A stretch of DNA of 64,000 nucleotides. Source: Patescibacteria group bacterium (GTDB lineage: Bacteria; Patescibacteriota; Patescibacteriia; Patescibacteriales; WJLG01). Position 1 is the first letter of the stretch. Every line of letters begins with the position of its first letter. A model generated the notes under the pieces. The model was not told the DNA's origin, searched no databases, and saw only the letters and a list, made by a program, of their open reading frames with translations. Below are positions 11,817-57,335 of this stretch, piece after piece. Location: positions 13,409 through 77,408 of the forward strand of contig JBAZHE010000002.1 in the NCBI GenBank assembly GCA_041652555.1. Direction: 5' to 3'. A program made the translations under genes and the position numbers.

Positions 11817-14078
11817 TTATAAGATATCCATCTCATAAATCGTTGCGCCGGACAAGATATATATTTTTTTATTCGCTTCATTAGCCGAAAAATCTTTTAC
11901 ATTAGATAATTTGTCAAAAATATATTGATTTAATAATTTGCCGGTGGCGAAATCAAAAATCGCTAGCCGTTTTTTAGACGCTTCCAAAATATAGACTTTT
12001 CTTTCCCCGACGATTAAACGCGAAGCTTCTGTGATCGGCTCTTCTATCGGTAAATCAGGGAAATTTTCTTTTTGGCCTTTGAGATATTTTTCCACTTGTC
12101 CGTTTTGGCGCAAGATATAAATATCGCCATTGATGAAAATATTCGCAGCATTGGCTAAGTCAATCTTAGCGTTAAGCCAGGCTGTCTGTCCGGAAAAGCC
12201 GCCTTCGGCCAGATTGTAGCGATAAATCTGGCTGTTTTGTTTGTCTACTAAGTAAACTCGGCTATTATAAATTTGAAAACCGCCGATATTTTTTATTTCC
12301 GTCGGCAATGAAATGCTTAATTTTTCTGCTTGACTTTGAGCATTTAATTTAAGAATTCCGTCTGATCCGAGAGAATAAACATCCTCTTTCTCTATTGCTA
12401 AAAAGTCTAAACCGCCGATATTCGGCAAATCATAAGAGGCGGTAACGATATTTTCTTTTAAATCAACTTTATAAATCGTTGGTGAAGATTCGTCCGTGGC
12501 ATAAATAATATTGCTGGTTAAGACGAGTTGCTGTGGTGCTGCGGCCGTATTTAGTTTGGAAAAATCAGCTGTTATTTTTAAGTCAGCGGAAACGCGAGTG
12601 ATAAGTCTAATTTTTTCCGACAGCTCGGTTTGTTTTTTAGTAAAAGCAATGATTGTTTCACGGCTGGATTTTTCTTTTTCTGGTATTTGGTTCAGAATTT
12701 TTTGGTTTTCCAGCCACAAGGCCTGTGCGTCGACATTGTTGCCATAAAGCAAATCAGCCTCTATTTTATCATGATTTTTTCCGATAGTTGACACTTTTTC
12801 ATTAAAAGTTTTTAGGGCTGTCGCGTTTTTATTGCTCTGTTTGGTGATGGCGAGGCTGGCGGAAAGGACCACGGCAATTATAACTATTGCTAAAGCAGCG
12901 AATTTTATCTTGTTTCGGCTCCAGTATTTTTTCTCACCGGTCGATTCCTCCTCGTTTTCATAATTGGAAGTTTTCATGATTGCGGAAAAAAGCTTACCTA
13001 AACCGGAGAATATTTTTTTGAAAAAATCCAATATTTTTTCCGGGGAAGCGAAACTTGGGCGTCTTTTGAAAAAAACCTTATCTTTCAGCATAAAAGGAAT
13101 CTTTGTTTGGCGTCCAGTTAGCGTTCCAACCACCGGAAAAGCTTGATTTTTTTGTCCGGGTTTTTTGAATATTCCATCTAGCCGTTTTTTAAGATTAAAA
13201 AATCCGGACGGCGCTAAAACCGATTCGGTTTTTTCTTCAATAGATACTATCTCCGGTTTGTAATCAAATCTTTCTAGCTCTTTTTCCGTTTTCTTTTTTA
13301 AATCTTCCTCGTTCATTGTTGAAAAAGCGGTGTTTTTTACCAACACCCCCAGGAAAGAAACATAAGAATTCACTTGCTCCAAAGTGTTTTTTATCTGTTC
13401 CATGGCGGCCGCTGGTGGCAACTTAGTAGCGATTTTTATCAGTTGTTTAGGTGAGAGATACTCCGACATTGCTTCGTTAACCGTTAAAAAGTATCCGGCC
13501 GTCGGTATTTTCCCACCAGAAATCTCCGAAAATATTTTATTAATCGCGATGCCTTCCCCAGCTGGTTTTTCCTGGCTTAAATCAGTGGCGCGATATTCTA
13601 TTTTTTCCGTTTCCAGCAAAGCTTGTCCGCGTTTGGGCGGTAGAGGTTCTTTTTCTTTATAGATTAAATAATTTTTATTTTTTCCAACCGAAGATAAATA
13701 AAGTTCGTTTTGATAAAGGACACCGACAGTCATGTTTAGAGAGTAGGGGCTGGTTTTTATTTTTTCTCCTTCTAAAAATTCGGTAAAATCTTTATTGGTT
13801 TTGGCTAGAGCGCCTTCAAAAATGCTTTCCACGGTGATAGTCTCAATTTTTTCTTTCAAGATTATTTTTTCACTATCGTAATAATTGGAATTCAGGCAAC
13901 CGATCAAAAAATTAATTATTTTTAAGCCGTCATTTCTCGGCGATTCTATTTCCGCCAAAACAAAAAGCTTGCCGGCTAAGGCTTCTTTGTAGCCGTCGGG
14001 TTGGGCGATGAAAATGTCAGCGGCGGTATTCGGTTTCTGTCCGCTGTTTAAAATTAAAGAGGCGATTTTATAATGCAT
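11817..14078 (-). CDS. hypothetical single-pass membrane protein with a cytoplasmic N-terminal domain and an extracytoplasmic C-terminal beta-propeller-like repeat domain
   Basis: Central TM helix FAALAIVIIAVVLSASLAI. C-terminal repeated blades (IYKVDL, VYSLGSDGILKLN, VYLVDKQNSQIYRYNL, IYILRQNGQVEKY, VYILEASKKRLAIFDF, IYILSGATIYEMDIL). N-terminal domain unassigned. Confidence 0.5.
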   Translation of the reverse strand: MHYKIASLILNSGQKPNTAADIFIAQPDGYKEALAGKLFVLAEIESPRNDGLKIINFLIGCLNSNYYDSEKIILKEKIETITVESIFEGALAKTNKDFTEFLEGEKIKTSPYSLNMTVGVLYQNELYLSSVGKNKNYLIYKEKEPLPPKRGQALLETEKIEYRATDLSQEKPAGEGIAINKIFSEISGGKIPTAGYFLTVNEAMSEYLSPKQLIKIATKLPPAAAMEQIKNTLEQVNSYVSFLGVLVKNTAFSTMNEEDLKKKTEKELERFDYKPEIVSIEEKTESVLAPSGFFNLKKRLDGIFKKPGQKNQAFPVVGTLTGRQTKIPFMLKDKVFFKRRPSFASPEKILDFFKKIFSGLGKLFSAIMKTSNYENEEESTGEKKYWSRNKIKFAALAIVIIAVVLSASLAITKQSNKNATALKTFNEKVSTIGKNHDKIEADLLYGNNVDAQALWLENQKILNQIPEKEKSSRETIIAFTKKQTELSEKIRLITRVSADLKITADFSKLNTAAAPQQLVLTSNIIYATDESSPTIYKVDLKENIVTASYDLPNIGGLDFLAIEKEDVYSLGSDGILKLNAQSQAEKLSISLPTEIKNIGGFQIYNSRVYLVDKQNSQIYRYNLAEGGFSGQTAWLNAKIDLANAANIFINGDIYILRQNGQVEKYLKGQKENFPDLPIEEPITEASRLIVGERKVYILEASKKRLAIFDFATGKLLNQYIFDKLSNVKDFSANEANKKIYILSGATIYEMDIL

Positions 14079-22772: not shown

Positions 22773-24761
22773 ATGTTTAAGAAGGCACAGTTTTTGTCGT
22801 TTTTAGTGATCATTCTGATTGCTGGCAACGTGTCCGCTGGTACATGGCAGAGTATCTGTGAATTTTTTAAAGGAAAAAAACAGGTACAACCGGTTACAAC
22901 GCAGGATAAAAAAGTTGATCCTTGCGATGGGTGTTATTACGGCAATGTCGTGGTTTTGAAACCAGGAGAATCCATTATGGACTTTGTTGTTAAACATAGT
23001 AATTGCTCGGACATTCCGGGTATTGCTATTATGGCAAAATTCAATGGGATTTCCGATGCGGTTTCTCCGATGACAGAATACAGAAATGTTAGAATTCCTA
23101 CATTAAAACAGGCTGACTCAATAAGAAATATTTTGGAATTCAAACAGTCACCAAAAAAACCGAAAATAGTTTCTGATGAGCCCAAGCCGATTATAAAGAA
23201 ACCTCAACCAACAGTCCAAGAGACTAAAAAAGTTCAGCAAGTAGGCCCTTTTCATTGGAAACATCCCGGAGCTGATCCGACTATTTATAATTCTCCGGAG
23301 CAGGTGTGGGTAAAAATGAGTTTTTCTAAAAAAGAGGGAGTTCTTGATTCTCTTCAGGCAAAAGTTGAAAGAGGAGATTGTATTCTTAACTATAAAAGTT
23401 ATAAAGGCGAAGGCTGGATAGAAATGTCCGGTGGCCGTGAAATAGATATTTATGGAAAGGATGGCCGAGGGGTCTTGAATGATTTCACAAATCTGGAATA
23501 TATCGAAGGGACAATGTATGAGGTTGATTATTCACCAACTCAAATAGCCCAAATATTCAAAGCTAATAACTGCGATAACTGGTGCTGGAGATTAGTGGAT
23601 CGTCCAATTGAGCCTCCGTGCGATACGGTTCGTGCTCCTGACACAGTTCGTGTTCATGACACAACTAAGGTTGTTGAGAAAGTCCCTCAGTATGTTGTGC
23701 CATCTGTCCCGGTTGCTCCGCCGAAAGATGAGAGAGGAATTTATGGTGAATGTTTCCTATGGACAGGGTATTACGCCCCGTTGCCGGTGATACATCACGG
23801 TCATTTCTATCTTGGTGGAATCGGTAATGTCTTTGCGCCCATCGGGAAATTTTCCGGTCTTGGTTTGAGCCTTAAGGCCAACGGCTATGCCGGTTGGAGC
23901 CCGAGGTTTTACGACAAGAAAGGAAATCCATTTTTTGGTGATTATGCCGGCGCTTTAGTTGGTATCGGTCCGATACTTGATCTGCAAAGCAGGAGTAAAA
24001 ACTTGAATAGCGGTATCAATACCAGAACAACCTTTGCTGGTAGAGTTTATTGGCAACATGATTGGTATCAGAACCAACATGATAAGTATTGGAATCGTCA
24101 AGGACCAAGGTCTTTTGCTCCGCAGTCGTTCGGGCCGGAGGTTACTTCCTATATAGCTAATTCTAATTGGACCAAGTGGGTTCAAGGATGGATTGGCTAC
24201 AGACAAGACGTAGCTTTTGTTAACGGCAATCTCTGGTATGTTTATAGAGAGGCTCATCTTAATGGTGAGAAACGAGCCCTGCAGGATGAACCGCCATGTA
24301 ATAAGACGGTGATTGACTGGGGCGTGGGGGTATTTCCCTGGCCGGTTTTCAAGGGAAGTTCAACTCTTGGAATTCAACATAAGGGTGACCATATGTTGGA
24401 AGATAATCGTTGGGAATTTTCTCTTGGATTTAGTTTAAGAGTCAAGAAGTTTTTCTTCGGCGCTGGTGTTAAAGAAACGATTGAATCTGTGTATAAAAAC
24501 CAGAATGGAAGATCAATTTATCTTTCAATTGACTTTGATCCGACGCCAAGAAACCAGCAAAAAAAAGTTATAGTTCAAGAATCCGCTCCTATTACCGAGG
24601 AGTTGCATGTTGATGAAAATCGTTATGTTGCCCCAGAACCAGAAGCGGATTCAGATGATGATCCATTTAGAGATTTAATCGATGATCCGAATTCTGGTAA
24701 TCAAAATCAGGAAAATTCAGCGGATTCAAATTACGTTCCGAGTATTCCATTTCAACGGTAG
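22773..24761 (+). CDS. large secreted hypothetical protein (signal peptide, possible degenerate LysM-like segment, aromatic/Gly-rich central domain, acidic C-terminus)
   Basis: Signal peptide MFKKAQFLSFLVIILIAGNVSAGTW. Perfect SD GAGGAGG 6 nt upstream. GC content visibly higher than the neighbouring genes. Confidence 0.5.
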   Translation: MFKKAQFLSFLVIILIAGNVSAGTWQSICEFFKGKKQVQPVTTQDKKVDPCDGCYYGNVVVLKPGESIMDFVVKHSNCSDIPGIAIMAKFNGISDAVSPMTEYRNVRIPTLKQADSIRNILEFKQSPKKPKIVSDEPKPIIKKPQPTVQETKKVQQVGPFHWKHPGADPTIYNSPEQVWVKMSFSKKEGVLDSLQAKVERGDCILNYKSYKGEGWIEMSGGREIDIYGKDGRGVLNDFTNLEYIEGTMYEVDYSPTQIAQIFKANNCDNWCWRLVDRPIEPPCDTVRAPDTVRVHDTTKVVEKVPQYVVPSVPVAPPKDERGIYGECFLWTGYYAPLPVIHHGHFYLGGIGNVFAPIGKFSGLGLSLKANGYAGWSPRFYDKKGNPFFGDYAGALVGIGPILDLQSRSKNLNSGINTRTTFAGRVYWQHDWYQNQHDKYWNRQGPRSFAPQSFGPEVTSYIANSNWTKWVQGWIGYRQDVAFVNGNLWYVYREAHLNGEKRALQDEPPCNKTVIDWGVGVFPWPVFKGSSTLGIQHKGDHMLEDNRWEFSLGFSLRVKKFFFGAGVKETIESVYKNQNGRSIYLSIDFDPTPRNQQKKVIVQESAPITEELHVDENRYVAPEPEADSDDDPFRDLIDDPNSGNQNQENSADSNYVPSIPFQR

Positions 24762-31734: not shown

Positions 31735-31881
31735 AAAGAACAACACAAGTTTTTGTTTGAAAATTTATTTCATAAAATTAATTTTCAAATAAACCCTGGT
31801 GGGTTTGAAGGGCGCAAGTCCTTAAATAGCTGGCACATTACAATTAGTATCCACACTTCCAACTTAGAAAAGGAGGCGCAT

Positions 31882-33936
31882 ATGCGCTCCAAGTCATTAG
31901 TAGTTTTTCTGTTTTTTCTGGTTATGCTCGTAATTTTTAGTTGCGACAAAAGCCCTGTATCGCCATCATCGGAAGATGAACGTATTTTTTCCGGTGATCC
32001 ATTAATCGTTGAAGTTGAAAAAGAACCGGTTGATGGTAAAGTCGGAATCAGCTTTTATCTCACTTCTGAAAGTTTTGACTCGGTGAACACCAAGACAGAG
32101 CTTGTTGGATTTGATGACGGCAGGTTACAGGGGTCATATATCTCAAAAGACAATCGTTTGTTCTTTTGGGTTGAAGTGTCCCCCGGAATTTACGTCTTCA
32201 GCTTTAACGGAGATAAAGATGATCCCAAGGAATCAATCATTAGTTCGGATTCATTTTGGGTTCCGGAAATCGGCAAATTTGCTATCAAAGTTACCAAGGA
32301 TTACAAAGTTGTAAAGGCTTCATTAAGTGAAGTTTTGCATCTTGGCAAGGATACTGAGGTTGCAGATTCGGTTGATTCAGTGATCGTGGTTAAGGAAAAT
32401 AGCGACGGCAAGGTGATTATCAAAATCGTTAAGGAAAACGATACGATATTTGATACGGTTACCGTCTCAAAATCAAAGGGCACGATTGTTCTTCTGGGTG
32501 ATTCGGTTATTTATAAAAAACCGTCAAATCCATCCAGCCTAGGTTATGACACGATTAGGTTGTTGCCACCGCAAAGCATTGTTGATTATAACAATGTAGT
32601 CAGGAGTGTTTCATTTGAGGCGGTAACTGTAAATGGGGAAAAGAAGTTTAAAGAGAAGGTTACCATTGACTCTGTTTTGGTAAGAAAGATAAAAGATAAG
32701 GTTTTTAAACCTTTTGCAATCGGTCTGCCAAATTGGAAAGCTTGGAGTAACCTCGGGGTAATAGATTCTAGTACTGGTCGCTATCCATTTACCACTGAAC
32801 CGATGTCGCCAGGACTAATTACCTTTTGTGTTGGTGGCAACTATCAAGATAACTGGGCGGATTCTTCGAAACTAAAAAAGTCCGCTTGGGGTTTTAAAAC
32901 CAAGGATGGTTGGATAATGGCCGGTTGGTTATTTCCCGATGGAAGATTTGTAGCCTGGTCGCTTGTTGACACGACTACGGCAACAGTTAAAGACAGTGTA
33001 AAAATTGATACTGTTGTTATTCATGACACAATCGTTGATTATGACACAACGGTTGTCCGAGATACGATTGTGAAACAAGGTAAAATAATCATTCTTCGGG
33101 ACAGTGTAATTATCATCAGAACAAGAGTGGATACACTTTTAAAGGTGGACACTTTACATGATGTTGATACAATCACTGTTAACGACACGACGGTTATAAA
33201 AGATACTATTATTATCAGGGATACCGTTGTTGTCCGAGATACGATTGTGAAGCAGGGTGATACGATTATATTCCGGGACAGTGTGATTATTATCAGAACA
33301 AGAGTGGACACACTTTTAAATGTGGACACTTTGCATAATAGGGATACGATGTTCGTGTATGATCTTGGGGTGGAAGATGTAGATACAGCCTTTATTGTTA
33401 TTAGTACTTTTAAGGTTGCTGCGGTAGGGGAGATTGTTGTAAAAGATTCCTTTTATATAAAATGGAATTTTCACAACTTTTTAAATGTTGTGAACAAAGA
33501 TTCCTCCTATTTAAGAGATACTATATCTATTTTCCGCGATACAACAGAAATAGATCGTGACACGAATGACCTGGTTCTGGTATTTAAATCGGCAACGGCA
33601 GTAGGAGATAGCTTTGATGTTAAATTTAAAGTTGTCTCAATAGTCGTGCCTGATGATCGTAGTTTTATCAGTGCCATGGGCTTCAAGGGCACGGGAGTTA
33701 TTCAAAGCGACACGATAAATTCCACTTCCAAATCCGACGGGTATTTCAATTTTTCCGTACGGATAAAGAAGGGGACGAAATATCGTATAAATTTCCGTTC
33801 CGGAACTGCCTGGGCTGAACAAGTTGTTTTACGACAGTCCAAATTCGTTTTTGTAGAGGGAACCAGTGTTGATCTGGCAGTTTCCCTTAATAATGACGCT
33901 ACCGGTTTTGATTACGCCTCGCCAGCGGCGCAGTAA
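31882..33936 (+). CDS. hypothetical lipoprotein-like surface protein with internal Asp/Thr/Ile-rich tandem repeats (start moved to the ATG with a perfect SD; the track start at 31753 is an alternative)
   Basis: AAGGAGG SD 6 nt upstream of ATG 31882. Signal peptide with lipobox-like VIFSC. Repeats VRDTIVKQG..I..RDSVIIIRTRVDTLL.VDTLH. Confidence 0.5.
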   Translation: MRSKSLVVFLFFLVMLVIFSCDKSPVSPSSEDERIFSGDPLIVEVEKEPVDGKVGISFYLTSESFDSVNTKTELVGFDDGRLQGSYISKDNRLFFWVEVSPGIYVFSFNGDKDDPKESIISSDSFWVPEIGKFAIKVTKDYKVVKASLSEVLHLGKDTEVADSVDSVIVVKENSDGKVIIKIVKENDTIFDTVTVSKSKGTIVLLGDSVIYKKPSNPSSLGYDTIRLLPPQSIVDYNNVVRSVSFEAVTVNGEKKFKEKVTIDSVLVRKIKDKVFKPFAIGLPNWKAWSNLGVIDSSTGRYPFTTEPMSPGLITFCVGGNYQDNWADSSKLKKSAWGFKTKDGWIMAGWLFPDGRFVAWSLVDTTTATVKDSVKIDTVVIHDTIVDYDTTVVRDTIVKQGKIIILRDSVIIIRTRVDTLLKVDTLHDVDTITVNDTTVIKDTIIIRDTVVVRDTIVKQGDTIIFRDSVIIIRTRVDTLLNVDTLHNRDTMFVYDLGVEDVDTAFIVISTFKVAAVGEIVVKDSFYIKWNFHNFLNVVNKDSSYLRDTISIFRDTTEIDRDTNDLVLVFKSATAVGDSFDVKFKVVSIVVPDDRSFISAMGFKGTGVIQSDTINSTSKSDGYFNFSVRIKKGTKYRINFRSGTAWAEQVVLRQSKFVFVEGTSVDLAVSLNNDATGFDYASPAAQ
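33051..33347 (+). repeat. intragenic direct repeat (two roughly 120-bp copies, about 90% identical, period about 177 bp) inside the 31882-33936 CDS
   Basis: Copy 1 at 33051-33170 and copy 2 at 33228-33347 (GTTGTCCGAGATACGATTGTGAARCARGG ... GTGGACACTTTRCAT). Confidence 0.55.
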
Positions 33937-48951: not shown

Positions 48952-49506
48952 TTATTTGGAATATTTTTTTACTAAAGTATCAACTTGAGCCAGGAATTCT
49001 TCCATTGTAGTGTTGTTGGTTATTTTTTCGTCGGCAGCAGCGATAGTTTCTACTATTTGTTCTTCGGTGCCAGCCTCTGAGTCTTTGGCAAATTCTTCAA
49101 AACTTTTTTCTGCATCTCCGGCGTTTTCATTGCGAGCGGTTAAGCGGTCGTAACGAATTTTGGTATCAGCATCAACTGCTATTAGGGTGAAATTTTTTAA
49201 ACGTTTCCAAGCTTCTACTTCGTCTTTATGGCGAATACCTTCAACAACAATTATTTTTTCTTCGGAATTTAAGACGCGCCAAATCAAGACGTCGGTCATA
49301 GCATAACGTCCAAACATCTCGCGTATTTTAGTACCGAGAACGGTTAAATTTTTTCTAGATTTTTCTATGTCGGCAGTATCTAATAGTTCACGTAAAAGAG
49401 AGGAGTATTTATAGGTTCTCGCTCCGTGTTTTTCGCTTAAATATTTAGCTACTATTCCTTTTCCGGAAGCCATTTCTCCAGTGACGCCAAAAATGATTTT
49501 GTCCAT
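48952..49506 (-). CDS. P-loop nucleoside/nucleotide kinase (dNMP-kinase-like / dephospho-CoA-kinase-like)
   Basis: Walker A FGVTGEMASGKG and VEGIRHKDE lid-like segment. Last gene of the minus-strand dCMP deaminase-dcd-thyX operon. Confidence 0.5.
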   Translation of the reverse strand: MDKIIFGVTGEMASGKGIVAKYLSEKHGARTYKYSSLLRELLDTADIEKSRKNLTVLGTKIREMFGRYAMTDVLIWRVLNSEEKIIVVEGIRHKDEVEAWKRLKNFTLIAVDADTKIRYDRLTARNENAGDAEKSFEEFAKDSEAGTEEQIVETIAAADEKITNNTTMEEFLAQVDTLVKKYSK

Positions 49507-49534
49507 GTTTTTTGTATCTTGTTATTTTTTTAAA

Positions 49535-51130
49535 TTATTTATTAAGTTCTTTCTCGAATTTTTCTTCTAAGTTATTTTTCATATCTTCATGAAATTGTTC
49601 GTCGTAATTTTTTACTGCTTTTTTAATTATCCAACAGGAATTTTTTTCTGGGCAGAAACCGGTATTGAAACATTTTGGTTCAATATGCCAATTAAGCCAA
49701 TCCAAATCCATTGTTTTTAGCTTGTGGTTTATTTTTACAGCTTCGTCGCGGGTGACGCGGCGCAATTGTTCATCGGCGGTAGTGCAGAGACGCAAAGGGA
49801 AATAGCCGGCGATTAAATTGTAAAAGTTAACATCTTGCAAAACATAAATTCTAACGGCACGAGGGATGACAAAGATAGCATCATGCTCGGGAACTCCTAG
49901 GGAGATTAATTTTTTATAAGCATCCAAGGATTTTAAAACTGTTTGGGTGTATTTTTTTAAATTTGTTTGGTCGTTGGCGATTTTAGTTGGAATATTTAAT
50001 GTAGTATCAAGATTTTTTATTTGTTCCTCGCTTAAAGTATTATTAGAAATATTTTTGGATAAATCTTGCCAAACCGAACAAGCTTGTTCGGTTGCGTAAT
50101 ACATAGAATCAACCGTCATTGGCATGGTGCGATGGCGTTTTCTTTCTCCCCAAACGCGCCAAGACAAACGAGAAATCATTTTTATATCAAGAGCGTTTTG
50201 GTAATCGCGGGCAATTTCGGCGCGCTTATCAATGGCTGTTGCCCAATTTTTTATCATTGTTTCTTTGTCGGCGTAAATTGCTTCTAAATCTTTTCGTAAA
50301 GAATCCATTTTTTCTTTTAAGGATTTTGTGGCTAGAGAATTGATTGAGACTATTTCACTTTCAGTACTGTTTAATTTTTCTTGAGCTATTTCTCGAGCTA
50401 GATTGACAGTCTTTGGGTTTTTAAAAATATTTGGGTAAGGATAGGTTGTTCGTGGAGCTAGGGAGCGAGATTTGAAAAGTGAGTCAACACCCATTTTTTT
50501 AAATTCCGTCTCTATGGCTTCAATAAAGAATCCTATTTCTTCAGGCATCCAAGCTTTTTCTCGGTCATATTCTCTTTTTAAGGTATTAAAAGACTCAATA
50601 CTATAAGAAATAATGCCGGTACCGTAAACGCCGTATTGTAGGATTTTTGAAGCTTGGTCTTTTTCTATTCCAACCTCTAAAAGTTCGTGAAAAGTGTCTA
50701 GTATTTTTTCAGAAGCTTCTTTATATATTTCTAGAGCTTCTTTGTTTTTGGCAATAGTGGTTGGGTAAACAATATCTTCATAAGTTGAATCAGTGCGACG
50801 TCCAGAGGCCATAAGGGAAGAGGAAAAAACCATACCAGTTAGGGCTGAGTCAATCATTTTTGAGGCTTCATAAGAAAATGAAAAAACTGGTGTTGTCGCC
50901 ATTGAAGCGTGGCCTTTTAAAGAAGAGTTTTTGAGAATGGTTTTAACTTTTTTGGTCATGTCTTGGCCTTTTTCTTCAGCTTCTTTCTTGAGATTTTCAG
51001 CTGATTTTCCTTTAAACGTCAAAAGGGCACCTAGAGCGCAAATGCTTTCTGGATCAAGTCCGCCGTTTTCATCTGTTAGCACCGGGTTGATGCCAAGGAA
51101 ATTTATTTTGAAATCTTTGGTAGATAACAT
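49535..51130 (-). CDS. thyX: flavin-dependent thymidylate synthase ThyX, long form (531 aa) with a roughly 230-aa insertion
   Basis: Exact ThyX motif RHR-X7-S (RHRTMPMTVDS). N-terminal GHASMATTPVFSF aligns with the ThyX HETPFEH region. C-terminal VPEHDAIFVIPRAVRIYV ... LR aligns with the ThyX helical core. Confidence 0.6.
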   Translation of the reverse strand: MLSTKDFKINFLGINPVLTDENGGLDPESICALGALLTFKGKSAENLKKEAEEKGQDMTKKVKTILKNSSLKGHASMATTPVFSFSYEASKMIDSALTGMVFSSSLMASGRRTDSTYEDIVYPTTIAKNKEALEIYKEASEKILDTFHELLEVGIEKDQASKILQYGVYGTGIISYSIESFNTLKREYDREKAWMPEEIGFFIEAIETEFKKMGVDSLFKSRSLAPRTTYPYPNIFKNPKTVNLAREIAQEKLNSTESEIVSINSLATKSLKEKMDSLRKDLEAIYADKETMIKNWATAIDKRAEIARDYQNALDIKMISRLSWRVWGERKRHRTMPMTVDSMYYATEQACSVWQDLSKNISNNTLSEEQIKNLDTTLNIPTKIANDQTNLKKYTQTVLKSLDAYKKLISLGVPEHDAIFVIPRAVRIYVLQDVNFYNLIAGYFPLRLCTTADEQLRRVTRDEAVKINHKLKTMDLDWLNWHIEPKCFNTGFCPEKNSCWIIKKAVKNYDEQFHEDMKNNLEEKFEKELNK

Positions 51131-51133
51131 AAT

Positions 51134-51194
51134 AATGCTAAATGCTAAATGATGAATGCTAAATAAAATAATTTAGCATTTAGCATTTAGCATT
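51134..51194. repeat. near-perfect 61-nt palindrome of heptad repeats, (AATGCTA)n ... (TAGCATT)n, filling the dcd-thyX spacer
   Basis: AATGCTAAATGCTAAATGATGAATGCTAAAT-AAAATA-ATTTAGCATTTAGCATTTAGCATT. Ends 3 nt before the thyX start codon. Confidence 0.55.
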
Positions 51195-51201
51195 GTTAAT
51201 T

Positions 51202-51810
51202 TTATATTTGTACCTCTTGTCCTTCGGTGCTTACTCTTCCGCCCATCCATTGGCCACGATATTGATTGCCTTCACCTAGAACTTCTTGAAAGGTGATATG
51301 GGCGATACGAGCACCGAAAGAAATTTTAACATTAGCTGGACCAAGATTGCAAACACCAAAAGTTAATTCTCCAGAATATCCCGGTTGAACAATCCCGTTA
51401 AACATTCCAAGGCCGGAACGAAACATTGTTGTGCGCGGGAAGACAACTCCGGAAAGAGTAGTCGGCAAATTAACTTTTTCCATTGTTTTAACAAGGTAAT
51501 ATTTTCCAGGTTCAAAAATAAAAATATCTTCGTTAACAGAAGTTGGCAAATCCCCTCTAAAAAGAGGGGTGGCGCGGTACTCCGCGACGGGGTGTGTTGT
51601 GTTGGAATTTTGAGCTTTGCCAACTAGTTTAGTGTTTGGTGTTTGTCTTTCTTCTACACCTAAAAATCCATCTCCTTCTAATTCATAAATTTCTCCCAAC
51701 CTCAAATCAAAACCCGCACCTTCGGGATTATTCATTTCCCGTTCGCACAAACCCCCAACCAGATTTATTTCCCTTACTAATTCGTGTAGTTTTTTAATAC
51801 CTAGAATCAT
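51202..51810 (-). CDS. dcd: dCTP deaminase
   Basis: GFDLRLG ... PRTTMFRSGLGMFNGIVQPGYSGELTFGVCN matches Dcd motifs. Contains an in-frame copy of the GC-rich element. Confidence 0.8.
   Translation of the reverse strand: MILGIKKLHELVREINLVGGLCEREMNNPEGAGFDLRLGEIYELEGDGFLGVEERQTPNTKLVGKAQNSNTTHPVAEYRATPLFRGDLPTSVNEDIFIFEPGKYYLVKTMEKVNLPTTLSGVVFPRTTMFRSGLGMFNGIVQPGYSGELTFGVCNLGPANVKISFGARIAHITFQEVLGEGNQYRGQWMGGRVSTEGQEVQI
51552..51603 (+). repeat. GC-rich palindromic element, copy C, lying in frame within dcd (encodes NSNTTHPVAEYRATPLFRGDLP on the opposite strand)
   Basis: CCCCTCTAAAAAGAGGGG-TGGCGCGGTACTCCGCGAC-GGGGTGTGTTGTGTT. The stem GCGCGG/CCGCGC replaces copy B's GTCTCG/CGAGAC (compensatory change). 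Confidence 0.45.
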
Positions 51811-52355
51811 ATTTTTTGGTTGATTTCTTTTCTTTCAAAATCACAATAAATTTTGCCTTCGTATTTGCTTATTTTTATTCCTTTAGCACGGGCCAGCTCT
51901 GTAGCTTCGTCTTCTTCTTCCATCTTTTCGCCGCCGGTTTGAGTTCTTAGATATACATCTTTGTAGATAATTTCTTTTATGCCAGCATTATTCAAGGCCT
52001 TCATGCAGTCATAGCAGGGGAATAAGACAGTATATAGAGTGCTCCCTCTTAGAGACTTTGGGTTAAGACAATTGATAATGCCATTGATTTCGGCATGAGC
52101 GCCACGACAACGTTTCAATTTTTTTGTTACTGGATCGCCCTCAATTTTAGCACAGCCAACTTCGTTGCAATGCAAGTCTCCCTCTGTTGGGCCATTGTAT
52201 CCCATGGAAAGAATTCTTTTGTCTTTATCAACAAAAACACAACCAGTCACTACTACTACGCAAGAAGTTCTCTTAGAGGCTATTACTGCTAGGTTCATAA
52301 ACATTTCATCCCAATTTAATCTTTGTACGCGTGGAGTCTTTTTAGAGTCTGTCAT
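51807..52355 (-). CDS. dCMP deaminase (ComEB-like)
   Basis: Zinc motifs CRGAHAEINGI and PCYDCMKAL. Overlaps the dcd start by 4 nt. Confidence 0.8.
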   Translation of the reverse strand: MTDSKKTPRVQRLNWDEMFMNLAVIASKRTSCVVVVTGCVFVDKDKRILSMGYNGPTEGDLHCNEVGCAKIEGDPVTKKLKRCRGAHAEINGIINCLNPKSLRGSTLYTVLFPCYDCMKALNNAGIKEIIYKDVYLRTQTGGEKMEEEDEATELARAKGIKISKYEGKIYCDFERKEINQKI

Positions 52356-52490
52356 ATTGTTAAATAAAATAATAAGAGAGGGTTAATCGTCCCCCTGAAA
52401 TATAATTTTAGCAAAATAAATTTTAATAGGCAATGGTTTTATTTTGAGTAAAGAAGTGATAAAAAATAGCTGTCTAAAAAATTTGTACAG

Positions 52491-52530
52491 CAAAAACAAA
52501 AAAACGCCTTTTAAGGCGTTGTTTTGTTGT
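52491..52530. terminator. bidirectional terminator downstream of rplA (-)
   Basis: AACGCC-TTTTAA-GGCGTT hairpin flanked by an A-run and T-run. Confidence 0.65.
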
Positions 52531-55655: not shown

Positions 55656-57335
55656 ATGGTTAGCCCGTATTTAAGCAAAAAAAAGAATGAATCATTAACA
55701 GTTTCTTTGCCGATAAAGAAGATTTTTCAGGCTGTTTATAGACAAAAAGAAAAAGGTGGTGATACTTCTGGAGAGGATGAGACTAAAATTGTTGTCTCTG
55801 AGCTTATTTCTAAGCTTACTTTTTTTTATGAAAAAATTCGCAATTACGTTGATTATAACGAAGAGCATCTGCATCGCAAGAACGCCATTAAAAGAATTTT
55901 AAAACGCCATCTGGTTATTGAAAGCGCGGTTGTTCGGGAATCAGCCGAAGATTTATCTAGAAATCTTTTGTGTGAACTGATTCGTGCCGGTTATCTGCCC
56001 AATAATAAAATTCCGGAAAAGAAAATAGATGATGTAAAATTGGTTTTAGAAAAGTATATAAAGCTTCGCCAATTAGCAATGCCACACGGTCTAGCCGAGC
56101 AGATGGAAAAAATAATCGATAAAGAGAAGCGTGAGTTTTCCGATTGGCTCCTGGGAATTGCCGCCAGCGAAATAGAAAGCACTTTGGAAATAAATAAGAT
56201 TGGTGAATTGGTTGTTGGCAATATCTATGAATATCTTTCCGGCAATGTTCGTTTGCCAATCAATTTTGCCGGTTATGAAAAAGATTTGCCGATTCAGATT
56301 TTTCTTTCCGTCCACCGTACGCATTTGAAATATGACGAAAGCATGTTGTCTTATTTGTTATTTAAATATTACAATGCTCAATGGTGGCTACCGCAAAACG
56401 AAGACATTGAAAAAATTGCTAAGAATATTTCTCTTTTACGCGCGGCTATCAGCCAGCAGCTTAATCATCCTCTGGTTAGACAACTGGATAAAATAACCAA
56501 CCGTTATTCGGTTTTTTATTCTATTTTAACTGATATGATCTCTGAAGATCCGGTGGCGCTTTATGAGAATATTAAAAATAAGCCGGAAGTTTTTTCTTCT
56601 CTAGCCAAAGAGCAATTTACGCAACGTTTTGAAAAAGCTAAGTCTCGCTTGTGGCGCGCCGGTATCAATAGTATCATTTATATTTTTATCACTAAGTCTA
56701 TCTTTGTTTTAGCCCTTGAAGTTCCGGCAACCAGATATTTCGGTCAGCCCTTGGATTATTTGGCCTTAACCGCGAATATGTTGTTTCCGCCTTTTTTACT
56801 TTTTTTAGTGATTATGTTCACGAAAGTGTCTAGTGAAGAGAATAATAAAAAAGTCGTGGCCGGCGTGGAAGAAATAACTTTTGAAGAAAAACATCGCCAC
56901 GATCCGATTGTCCTGCGCAAGCCGACTCGTCGCAACCCGATTGTGAGCTTTATTTTTAACATTTTATATTCTTTAACTTTTTTGATTTCTTTTGGCGCCG
57001 TGGTTTGGGTTTTGAATAAATTTAATTTTACCTGGGTGAGTACTGTAATTTTTTTATTTTTTTTAGTGTTTGTTTCTTTCTTTTCAATCCTTATTCGTCG
57101 CAACGTTCGTCGGTTGGTGGTTGTGGAAGAGCGGGAAAATCTTTTGAATTTTATATTGGATTTTTTCTTTATTCCTATTACCGTAGTTGGTAAATGGATT
57201 TCGCATAAATTTTCCAAGATAAATGTCTTTATGTTTGTAATGGACTTTATTATTGAAGCCCCATTTAAAGTATTAGTTAGCATTGCCGAACAATGGACAA
57301 GATATGTACGCGAACGTAAAGAAGACATTGAGTAG
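55656..57335 (+). CDS. hypothetical membrane protein (soluble N-terminal approx 330 aa, C-terminal polytopic region)
   Basis: No recognised motif. Several C-terminal TM helices. Confidence 0.45.
   Translation: MVSPYLSKKKNESLTVSLPIKKIFQAVYRQKEKGGDTSGEDETKIVVSELISKLTFFYEKIRNYVDYNEEHLHRKNAIKRILKRHLVIESAVVRESAEDLSRNLLCELIRAGYLPNNKIPEKKIDDVKLVLEKYIKLRQLAMPHGLAEQMEKIIDKEKREFSDWLLGIAASEIESTLEINKIGELVVGNIYEYLSGNVRLPINFAGYEKDLPIQIFLSVHRTHLKYDESMLSYLLFKYYNAQWWLPQNEDIEKIAKNISLLRAAISQQLNHPLVRQLDKITNRYSVFYSILTDMISEDPVALYENIKNKPEVFSSLAKEQFTQRFEKAKSRLWRAGINSIIYIFITKSIFVLALEVPATRYFGQPLDYLALTANMLFPPFLLFLVIMFTKVSSEENNKKVVAGVEEITFEEKHRHDPIVLRKPTRRNPIVSFIFNILYSLTFLISFGAVVWVLNKFNFTWVSTVIFLFFLVFVSFFSILIRRNVRRLVVVEERENLLNFILDFFFIPITVVGKWISHKFSKINVFMFVMDFIIEAPFKVLVSIAEQWTRYVRERKEDIE

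Follow-up and report, generated by a model that had tools for sequence, protein, structure and literature searches.

We analysed a group of four genes on the minus strand of a 64-kb stretch of DNA from a Patescibacteria group bacterium (contig JBAZHE010000002.1; the whole stretch of 64,000 nucleotides (nt) is referred to as the window), the third of which encodes an unusually long FAD (flavin adenine dinucleotide)-dependent thymidylate synthase, ThyX. In the direction of transcription, the group comprises a ComEB-like dCMP deaminase gene (182 amino acids (aa); 51807–52355), a gene for a 202-aa protein of the dCTP deaminase (DCD)/dUTPase fold with non-canonical active-site residues (51202–51810), the long thyX gene, which encodes two Thy1 folds in one chain (531 aa; 49535–51130), and a gene for a P-loop kinase of the UPF0200/SSO1041 type (184 aa; 48952–49506). 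The first two genes were assigned from the list of open reading frames (ORFs) and Pfam matches, thyX from its ORF, Pfam and an AlphaFold2 model, and the kinase gene from the ORF list and profile matches. All four ORFs lie exactly where they had been placed by an earlier model-generated reading of the DNA alone (the sequence-only reading). This had also described a ThyX of about twice the usual length inside a pyrimidine-deoxynucleotide gene cluster, which is what we found, and a tight coupling of the genes by 4-nt overlaps and short spacers. Just one pair of genes, those for the dCMP deaminase and the DCD-fold protein, overlaps by 4 nt; the other junctions are spacers of 71 nt (DCD-fold gene to thyX) and 28 nt (thyX to the kinase gene).

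The 531-aa protein matched the Pfam family Thy1 (PF02511) with 88.7 bits (cut-off 24.8) in two stretches. Searched alone, the N-terminal domain (aa 1–256; 50363–51130, minus strand) reached 39.3 bits against the same cut-off of 24.8 (E 7.6e-10), with residues 26–175 spanning positions 8–152 of the 191 in the Thy1 profile. The C-terminal domain (aa 257–531; 49535–50362, minus strand) alone reached 52.2 bits (E 8.3e-14) at positions 64–179 of 191. Sequence searches against solved structures were not sufficient for a family that has diverged so far (a profile of 106 homologues gave a single, marginal match in the PDB, 6j61, with an E of 0.52), and we therefore used profile–profile and fold comparison. 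For HHalign, the profile was built from an alignment of 74 diverse long forms (25–100% identity). The N-terminal half aligned to the canonical ThyX profile over 188 columns, residues 9–222 corresponding to residues 11–205 of Thermotoga maritima ThyX (probability 99.9%, E 2.9e-31), and the C-terminal half aligned to it with a probability of 99.8% (E 4.9e-30). The two halves also aligned with each other, over 208 columns and with a probability of 96.9% (E 1.4e-10); with a shallow alignment (≥47% identity) this last comparison gave merely 16.5% over 38 columns.

An AlphaFold2 model of the 531-aa protein, based on 106 homologues, had a predicted local distance difference test score (pLDDT) of 91.9 and a predicted template modelling score (pTM) of 0.90. 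In this model, the order of strands and helices of residues 8–224 recurs at residues 258–473. By Foldseek, the best matches in the PDB were T. maritima ThyX entries (1o26), aligned over about 240 columns with a probability of 1.0 and a target-normalised template modelling score (TM-score) of 0.73; another of the top matches was PolB (4p5b), a ThyX homologue. The first 56 residues of the C-terminal half, a strand and two long helices, take the equivalent place in the topology and show no sequence match to the canonical N-terminus; the C domain further contains a helical insert of about 25 aa after the motif described below and a Cys-rich C-terminal part. Between the two domains lies a linker with the motif APRxxYPYPNIFKNP (aa 225–239; 50414–50458, minus strand), identified in the alignments. 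It is specific to the long form and highly conserved, F236 being present in 91% of all long forms, and has no counterpart in canonical ThyX. The long ThyX contains the entire ThyX fold twice, fused head to tail by internal tandem duplication. The AlphaFold2, Foldseek and HHalign results also uphold the family assignment of the sequence-only reading, since the protein resembles ThyX over far more than a short motif. By the tests applied, it largely belongs to the ThyX family; unlike every characterised member, it is a fused, asymmetrically degenerated double domain.

The identical 531-aa protein is named 'FAD-dependent thymidylate synthase [Patescibacteria group bacterium]' at NCBI. In a scan of one genome per species, long ThyX proteins of about 530 aa with 42–83% identity were found in 67 species-representative genomes, including the closed 639-kb chromosome CP179888.1. 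As far as could be judged, all 67 are Patescibacteria, several of them being titled Gammaproteobacteria, Pseudomonadales, Desulfobacterales or Nanoarchaeia. At least 120 clusters (90% identity) consist of proteins of 510–560 aa that cover 95–100% of the query at identities down to 47%. An exhaustive search of 50%-identity representatives yielded 368 matches, about 66 of which are long forms of 420–590 aa with 25–46% identity, and the named proteins among these distant long forms come from DPANN archaea (Nanoarchaeota). The long ThyX is thus, it appears, widespread in bacteria and archaea with tiny genomes and apparently undescribed; in the open-access full texts that were searched, neither a tandem nor a double-length ThyX is described.

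The catalytic residues of T. maritima ThyX were mapped onto both domains by means of a reference sequence taken to be that of T. maritima ThyX, whose numbering fits the published residues H53, R78-H79-R80, S88, R90, Y91, E144, R147 and R174. The motif RHRTMPMTVDS, already noticed in the sequence-only reading, is present at aa 332–342 (50105–50137). It belongs to the C-domain ThyX motif RHRTMPMTVDSMYY (aa 332–345; 50096–50137, minus strand; read from the translation), which aligns to R78-H79-R80...S88 of T. maritima. Accordingly, the equivalents of Arg78-His79-Arg80 are R332-H333-R334 in the C domain and G99-M100-V101 in the N domain. R-H-R-x7-S is found in the C domain, and the N domain has G99-M100-V101...S109 instead. 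His53 corresponds to H74 (in GH74AS) of the N domain and has no equivalent in the C domain. For the substrate loop Ser88-Gly89-Arg90-Tyr91, residue mapping identified S109-G110-R111-R112 in the N domain (50795–50806, minus strand) and S342-M343-Y344-Y345 in the C domain. This Ser-x-Arg-Tyr loop lacks the Arg in the C domain and the Tyr in the N domain, so that the set is complete only when both domains are combined. The equivalents of Arg147 are S161 (N domain) and I419 (C domain) and those of Arg174 are Y188 and R447, respectively; Ser83 is represented by S104 in the N domain and was not mapped in the C domain.

Taken by domain, the N domain has kept His53 and the Ser-Gly-Arg loop and lost RHR and Arg174, whereas the C domain has kept RHR, Ser88 and Arg174 and lost His53, Arg90 and Arg147. 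The residues at these positions are well conserved among the 74 long forms, both in the N domain (S109 100%, R111 100%, H74 94%) and in the C domain (R332 100%, H333 90%, R334 82%, S342 83%, Y344 91%, R447 97%). The N-domain loop S109–R112 is also the sole segment of the AlphaFold2 model with a pLDDT below 50, as would be expected of a flexible substrate loop.

ThyX, a target for antibiotics, is a homotetramer in which three subunits contribute to the active site. To our knowledge, the assignment of residues to subunits is known only from mutagenesis and mixed-tetramer experiments. According to these roles, Gln75 and Arg182 (corresponding to T. maritima Arg174) are supplied by monomer A, and Ser88, residue 89 and Arg90 by monomer B (PMC3498832); Ser88, Arg90 and Tyr91 constitute the conserved catalytic loop (PMC11940539). 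The division of residues in the long ThyX matches the published roles of monomers A and B. On this basis, the enzyme would be a dimer of pseudo-dimers and have two composite sites. We consider it rather probable that the protein is a duplicated ThyX with complementary catalytic subsets in its two copies, two chains of which build a pseudo-tetramer. After the duplication, each copy would have retained its own subset of catalytic residues. The C-terminal copy would act in the role of monomer A, contributing the RHR triad for flavin and nucleotide binding together with R447, and the N-terminal copy would act in place of the neighbouring monomers and contribute the S109-G110-R111 substrate loop and H74. 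In a D2 tetramer the sites are composed of subunits (1,2,3), (2,1,4), (3,4,1) and (4,3,2). If positions 1 and 4 are taken by C domains and positions 2 and 3 by N domains, two sites would be complete (C + N + N') and two dead, compared with four complete sites in the homotetramer. Such an enzyme would presumably bind FAD and synthesise deoxythymidine monophosphate (dTMP). Its substrate, deoxyuridine monophosphate (dUMP), would be made by the dCMP deaminase and possibly by the DCD-fold protein too, and the neighbouring kinase possibly phosphorylates a deoxynucleoside monophosphate (dNMP).

If the residues have been sorted naturally into two linked domains, the long ThyX would provide an independent test of the subunit assignment. 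A composite enzyme of this kind would also be a minimal two-site version of ThyX and a handy scaffold for asymmetric mutagenesis. The relevance of the protein lies in ThyX enzymology and in the reconstruction of the nucleotide metabolism of candidate phyla radiation (CPR) bacteria and DPANN archaea.

Several observations weigh against a composite enzyme or against the ThyX assignment on which it is built. A phmmer search of the PDB with the 531-aa protein matched no solved ThyX, and AlphaFold2 modelling of the N-terminal half alone, with an alignment of 20 sequences, gave a pLDDT of 51 and no sheet. The NCBIfam equivalog model for thyX, TIGR02170, matched only residues 319–460 and scored 49.2 bits, below its cut-off of 87.9. 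This matters for the annotation of CPR and DPANN genomes, in which the name 'FAD-dependent thymidylate synthase' is given on a Pfam hit to proteins that fail the equivalog model. Within the catalytic set, the N-domain loop has Arg112 at the position of Tyr91, and an equivalent of Ser88 is kept in both domains, because of which the assignment of dead sites is not clean. Finally, the composite-site model has no role for four invariant cysteines of the C domain.

Compared with the canonical homotetrameric ThyX (T. maritima TM0449, 1O26; PF02511), the long ThyX shares the fold, which is found in both of its halves, the gene context of deoxypyrimidine metabolism, and equivalents of RHR-x7-S, Arg174, His53 and Ser-Gly-Arg, all of them somewhere in the chain. 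It differs in that each chain holds two copies, fused and diverged, where the canonical enzyme has one; none of the solved ThyX structures that were matched exceeds 270 residues. The catalytic set is divided, so that four domains would form at most two complete sites; there is no Arg90 beside the C-domain Ser, and Arg replaces Tyr91 in the N-domain loop. In addition, the long form contains the insert of about 25 aa, the YPYPNIFKNP linker and the four cysteines. These lie in the motif R447-L-C449...K486-C487-x5-C493-P-E-x3-C499 (49634–49786, minus strand), which emerged from the alignments. C449, C487, C493 and C499 are invariant in 106 close homologues and 93–97% conserved in the 74 diverse long forms. 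The motif is absent from all matched sequences of solved ThyX proteins, that of Mycobacterium tuberculosis having MRASEHA in place of R-L-C.

The four-Cys motif is common to the nearest ThyX proteins of ordinary length too. These short forms of about 230 aa (P0241, P0244, P0245) are the nearest single-domain relatives of the C-terminal half (query residues 380–505, about 30% identity) and possess the same four cysteines. They differ from the long form in that a single domain carries the complete GH-S / RHR-x7-S-x-R-Y set, and they are presumably ordinary homotetramers; none of them is found among the solved structures. The long form seems to have arisen by duplication of a short Cys-motif ThyX gene of this kind, with complementary loss afterwards. 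The cysteines might bind an Fe-S cluster or serve as a structural zinc site, and the conserved motif constitutes an unstudied feature of a large ThyX clade.

Double-length ThyX-like proteins seem to occur in phages as well. Predicted structures of phage 'thymidylate synthases' of 413–502 aa in BFVD align across both domains of the long ThyX model. They comprise A0A7D4 (Microcystis phage Ma-LMM01 gp020, 491 aa), A0A127AWA5 (Bacillus phage SP-15, 413 aa), A0A6B7EUB9 (461 aa) and A0A8S5THH6 (502 aa). The alignments extend over about 440–570 columns with a TM-score of 0.38–0.47 normalised to the query and a probability of 1.0, but with an identity of only 7–12% and a root mean square deviation of 8–15 Å from the long ThyX model. 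A tblastn search of phage genomes with the long ThyX gave just four weak, partial matches to the C-terminal 100 residues. Because the predicted phage structures align over the whole two-domain model, the double-length architecture is probably not confined to CPR and DPANN. A further lead is the ThyX of Chlamydia, a biochemically characterised protein of about 529 aa; no protein named Chlamydia was among the matches of the homologue searches. If it is also a tandem protein, there would be a characterised precedent for the double length and the novelty of the long form would be reduced.

The alternative that survives best is a tandem ThyX-fold flavoprotein with another job, either a different modification of pyrimidines at C5, as in PolB, or a reaction in which a metal or Fe-S centre held by the cysteines accepts electrons from a donor other than reduced nicotinamide adenine dinucleotide (phosphate) (NAD(P)H). 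The score below the thyX equivalog cut-off would fit this, as would the rearrangement of the S-x-R-Y loop, which reads S-G-R-R in the N-terminal copy and S-x-Y-Y in the C-terminal one, and four cysteines that are strongly conserved and missing from all solved ThyX proteins. PolB, a ThyX homologue that methylates UMP and dUMP, is among the top structural matches, and the phages with two-domain ThyX-like proteins include SP-15, which presumably carries a hypermodified uracil. Moreover, ThyX-like domains have been recruited to other redox roles, as in a ThyX-MSRB fusion (PMC6211008). On the other hand, every residue known to be essential for dTMP synthesis is present somewhere in the protein, and its gene context is that of housekeeping, with dUMP-producing enzymes and ribosomal-protein genes adjoining in most genomes. 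Neither thyA nor a second thyX was found in the 64-kb window, to which this search was confined. The Cys motif is also common to ThyX proteins of ordinary length with the full canonical motif. Taken together, we regard another function as unlikely. A more specific version, to which we give somewhat less credence still, is that long and short ThyX proteins with the Cys motif form a distinct, structurally uncharacterised clade in which a metal or Fe-S centre at the cysteines passes electrons on to the flavin or controls their flow, with the tandem arrangement leading to two asymmetric composite sites. If so, an electron donor different from NAD(P)H would drive thymidylate synthesis in anaerobic, metabolically minimal CPR and DPANN organisms.

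The sequence-only reading had interpreted the extra length as an insertion of about 230 aa between an N-terminal segment and the RHR motif, that is, as a single ThyX domain interrupted by a foreign domain. That canonical RHR-x7-S occurs just once, at aa 332–342, and that the TIGR02170 match is limited to one part of the protein would be in line with this. However, residues 1–256 are a near-complete Thy1 domain themselves. Their match to the Thy1 profile extends across the motif position and the long helices behind it, and the N-terminal half aligns end to end with canonical ThyX and also with the C-terminal half. The C-terminal half has its own strand and two helices before RHR in the AlphaFold2 model, and no other Pfam family matches the supposedly inserted region. 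The His-containing segment that had been taken for the N-terminal core of the enzyme represents the region around His53 in a first ThyX domain, which is separate and has its own Ser-Gly-Arg loop. An interrupted single domain is therefore highly improbable, and the insertion is rejected.

Equally little speaks for an anti-phage nucleotide-depletion module akin to the defence dCTP deaminases. The kinase (60.5 bits, N-terminal part) and the deaminase (61.8 bits, C-terminal part) both match the PADLOC model dCTPase, and they score 33.7 and 54.1 bits, respectively, with the NCBIfam model antiphage_deaminase. Its cut-off is 400, however, and both scores fall far below it; here, each domain is encoded by a gene of its own, and only 4 of the 67 loci have the kinase gene linked to thyX. 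A thymidylate synthase gene is part of the cluster, which has secE-nusG-rplK-rplA next to it, and the deaminase is much closer to housekeeping and phage dCMP deaminases (E 6e-39) than to the defence proteins. A defence identity of the cluster was rejected on score and context. As an observation apart from this, the match of separate kinase and deaminase genes to the two ends of the anti-phage models is consistent with an origin of the defence protein as a fusion of such housekeeping genes.

Least credible of all is an assembly or frameshift artefact that fused two adjacent genes: some relatives of about 230–290 aa match the N-terminal or the C-terminal half only, one of them on a contig of 905 bp where another ORF overlaps it downstream, but such short relatives lie mostly on tiny contigs and look like fragments, and a join is excluded because the uninterrupted ORF of 510–560 aa recurs in 67 independent species genomes, closed CP179888.1 among them, and in at least 120 clusters, with a linker that is itself highly conserved.

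The short relatives that match the N-terminal half only are P0166, P0184, P0202, P0223 and P0225 (266–291 aa), and those that match the C-terminal half only are P0145, P0180 and P0182 (228–254 aa). They may be genuine two-gene versions or mere fragments. For the one that was traced (locus L068, on the 905-bp contig), the end of the ORF looks out-of-frame.

Among the neighbours of the long thyX, the 182-aa dCMP deaminase is conventional. It reached 68.5 bits with Pfam dCMP_cyt_deam_1 (PF00383; cut-off 25), its translation contains the zinc motifs HAEINGI and PCYDCMKAL (HAE and PCxxC), and the E of 6e-39 cited above was obtained with phrog_174, 'dCMP deaminase'. The ComEB equivalog cut-off was not reached (87 versus 219).

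The 202-aa protein had been called a dCTP deaminase. The DCD/dUTPase fold is well supported, by PF22769 DCD (75.7 bits, cut-off 27), by PF00692 dUTPase (39.8 bits, cut-off 22) and, as the best match in the PDB, by 4xjc (E 2.6e-12), which was deposited as a dCTP deaminase. The scores remained below the cut-offs of the equivalogs TIGR02274 (69.8 versus 92.8) and PRK02253 for archaeal-type dUTPase (58.8 versus 130). Compared with DCD and the bifunctional DCD:DUT (4xjc; 1xs1/2qxx), it has the fold signature of the trimeric dUTPase superfamily and keeps R-[ST]-[ST]-x-x-R-x-G and P-G-[FY]-x-G. It differs from them by Gly152 in place of the catalytic Glu of the T-L-E-L strand, which we take to be Glu138 in Escherichia coli, and by Gln142 in place of the Asp of v-D-P-G. 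Both substitutions are found in 120 of 120 close homologues, in all of which Glu148 is invariant. The 50 homologues linked to long thyX have G or A at the position of the catalytic Glu and A, S or Q at that of the Asp. The protein, labelled 'hypothetical protein' by NCBI, is a member of a large CPR-specific subfamily. Since the canonical catalytic Glu and Asp are gone, the label 'dCTP deaminase' is insecure, and for the same reason it is not established by which route these organisms make dUMP. The presence of both a dCMP and a dCTP route, which the sequence-only reading had found worthy of remark, is not unusual in itself: 4xjc is, we assume, the DCD:DUT of Bacillus halodurans, an organism that presumably has a dCMP deaminase too. 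In a 2023 study, CPR bacteria were reported to carry relatives of Dictyostelium Dcd2, which complements an E. coli dcd mutant (PMC10733785).

The kinase, with the Walker A sequence GEMASGKG, is closest to the archaeal UPF0200 protein SSO1041, its best PDB match (3lw7/3h0k, E 2e-13). Of the description as a kinase like the T4 dNMP kinase or CoaE, the match to the phage family phrog_139, 'deoxynucleoside monophosphate kinase' (E 9e-21), can be retained. With Pfam DNMK (PF21448; 14.0 versus 27.1) and CoaE (PF01121; 15.0 versus 27), the cut-offs were missed and only the P-loop segment matched, and the score with NCBIfam PRK08356 was 68.8 against a cut-off of 189.

The most faithful neighbour of the long thyX is the DCD-fold gene, which adjoins it in 50 of the 67 genomes, making a functional link between the two likely. 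A dCMP deaminase gene lies nearby in 11 of the 67 loci and the kinase gene adjoins in 4, and the tight module of four genes is therefore particular to this lineage.

Upstream of the cluster and on the same strand lie rplA, rplK, nusG and secE. The window has a G+C content of 33–42% and encodes functions typical of small-genome bacteria. It also contains four large ORFs (559–753 aa) that have no Pfam match at E values up to 1e-5, at 11817–14078 (minus strand), 22773–24761, 31753–33936 and 55656–57335 (all plus strand). A consensus scan detected a terminator-like hairpin after rplA (52503–52520, minus strand) and, between it and the dCMP deaminase gene, a promoter-like site (52405–52433, minus strand). 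On the strength of these two signals, the four genes probably form a transcription unit of their own.

RNA folding identified a repeat-built hairpin in the 71-nt spacer between the DCD-fold gene and thyX (51131–51198, minus strand). In it, ATGCTAA(A) is repeated three times before its reverse complement, which is also present three times. The hairpin fills nearly the whole spacer, with arms of 24–28 nt that are 89–92% complementary and a 3' arm that stops 4 nt short of the thyX ATG. The minimum free energy of the RNA is −27 kcal/mol (z-score −6.6), and none of 200 shuffled sequences folded equally well. As a conserved regulatory element of the long thyX family the hairpin was discarded, being absent in the closest relatives L001 and L002. 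It occurs once in the window; in the relative L003, its position is occupied by a different long hairpin.

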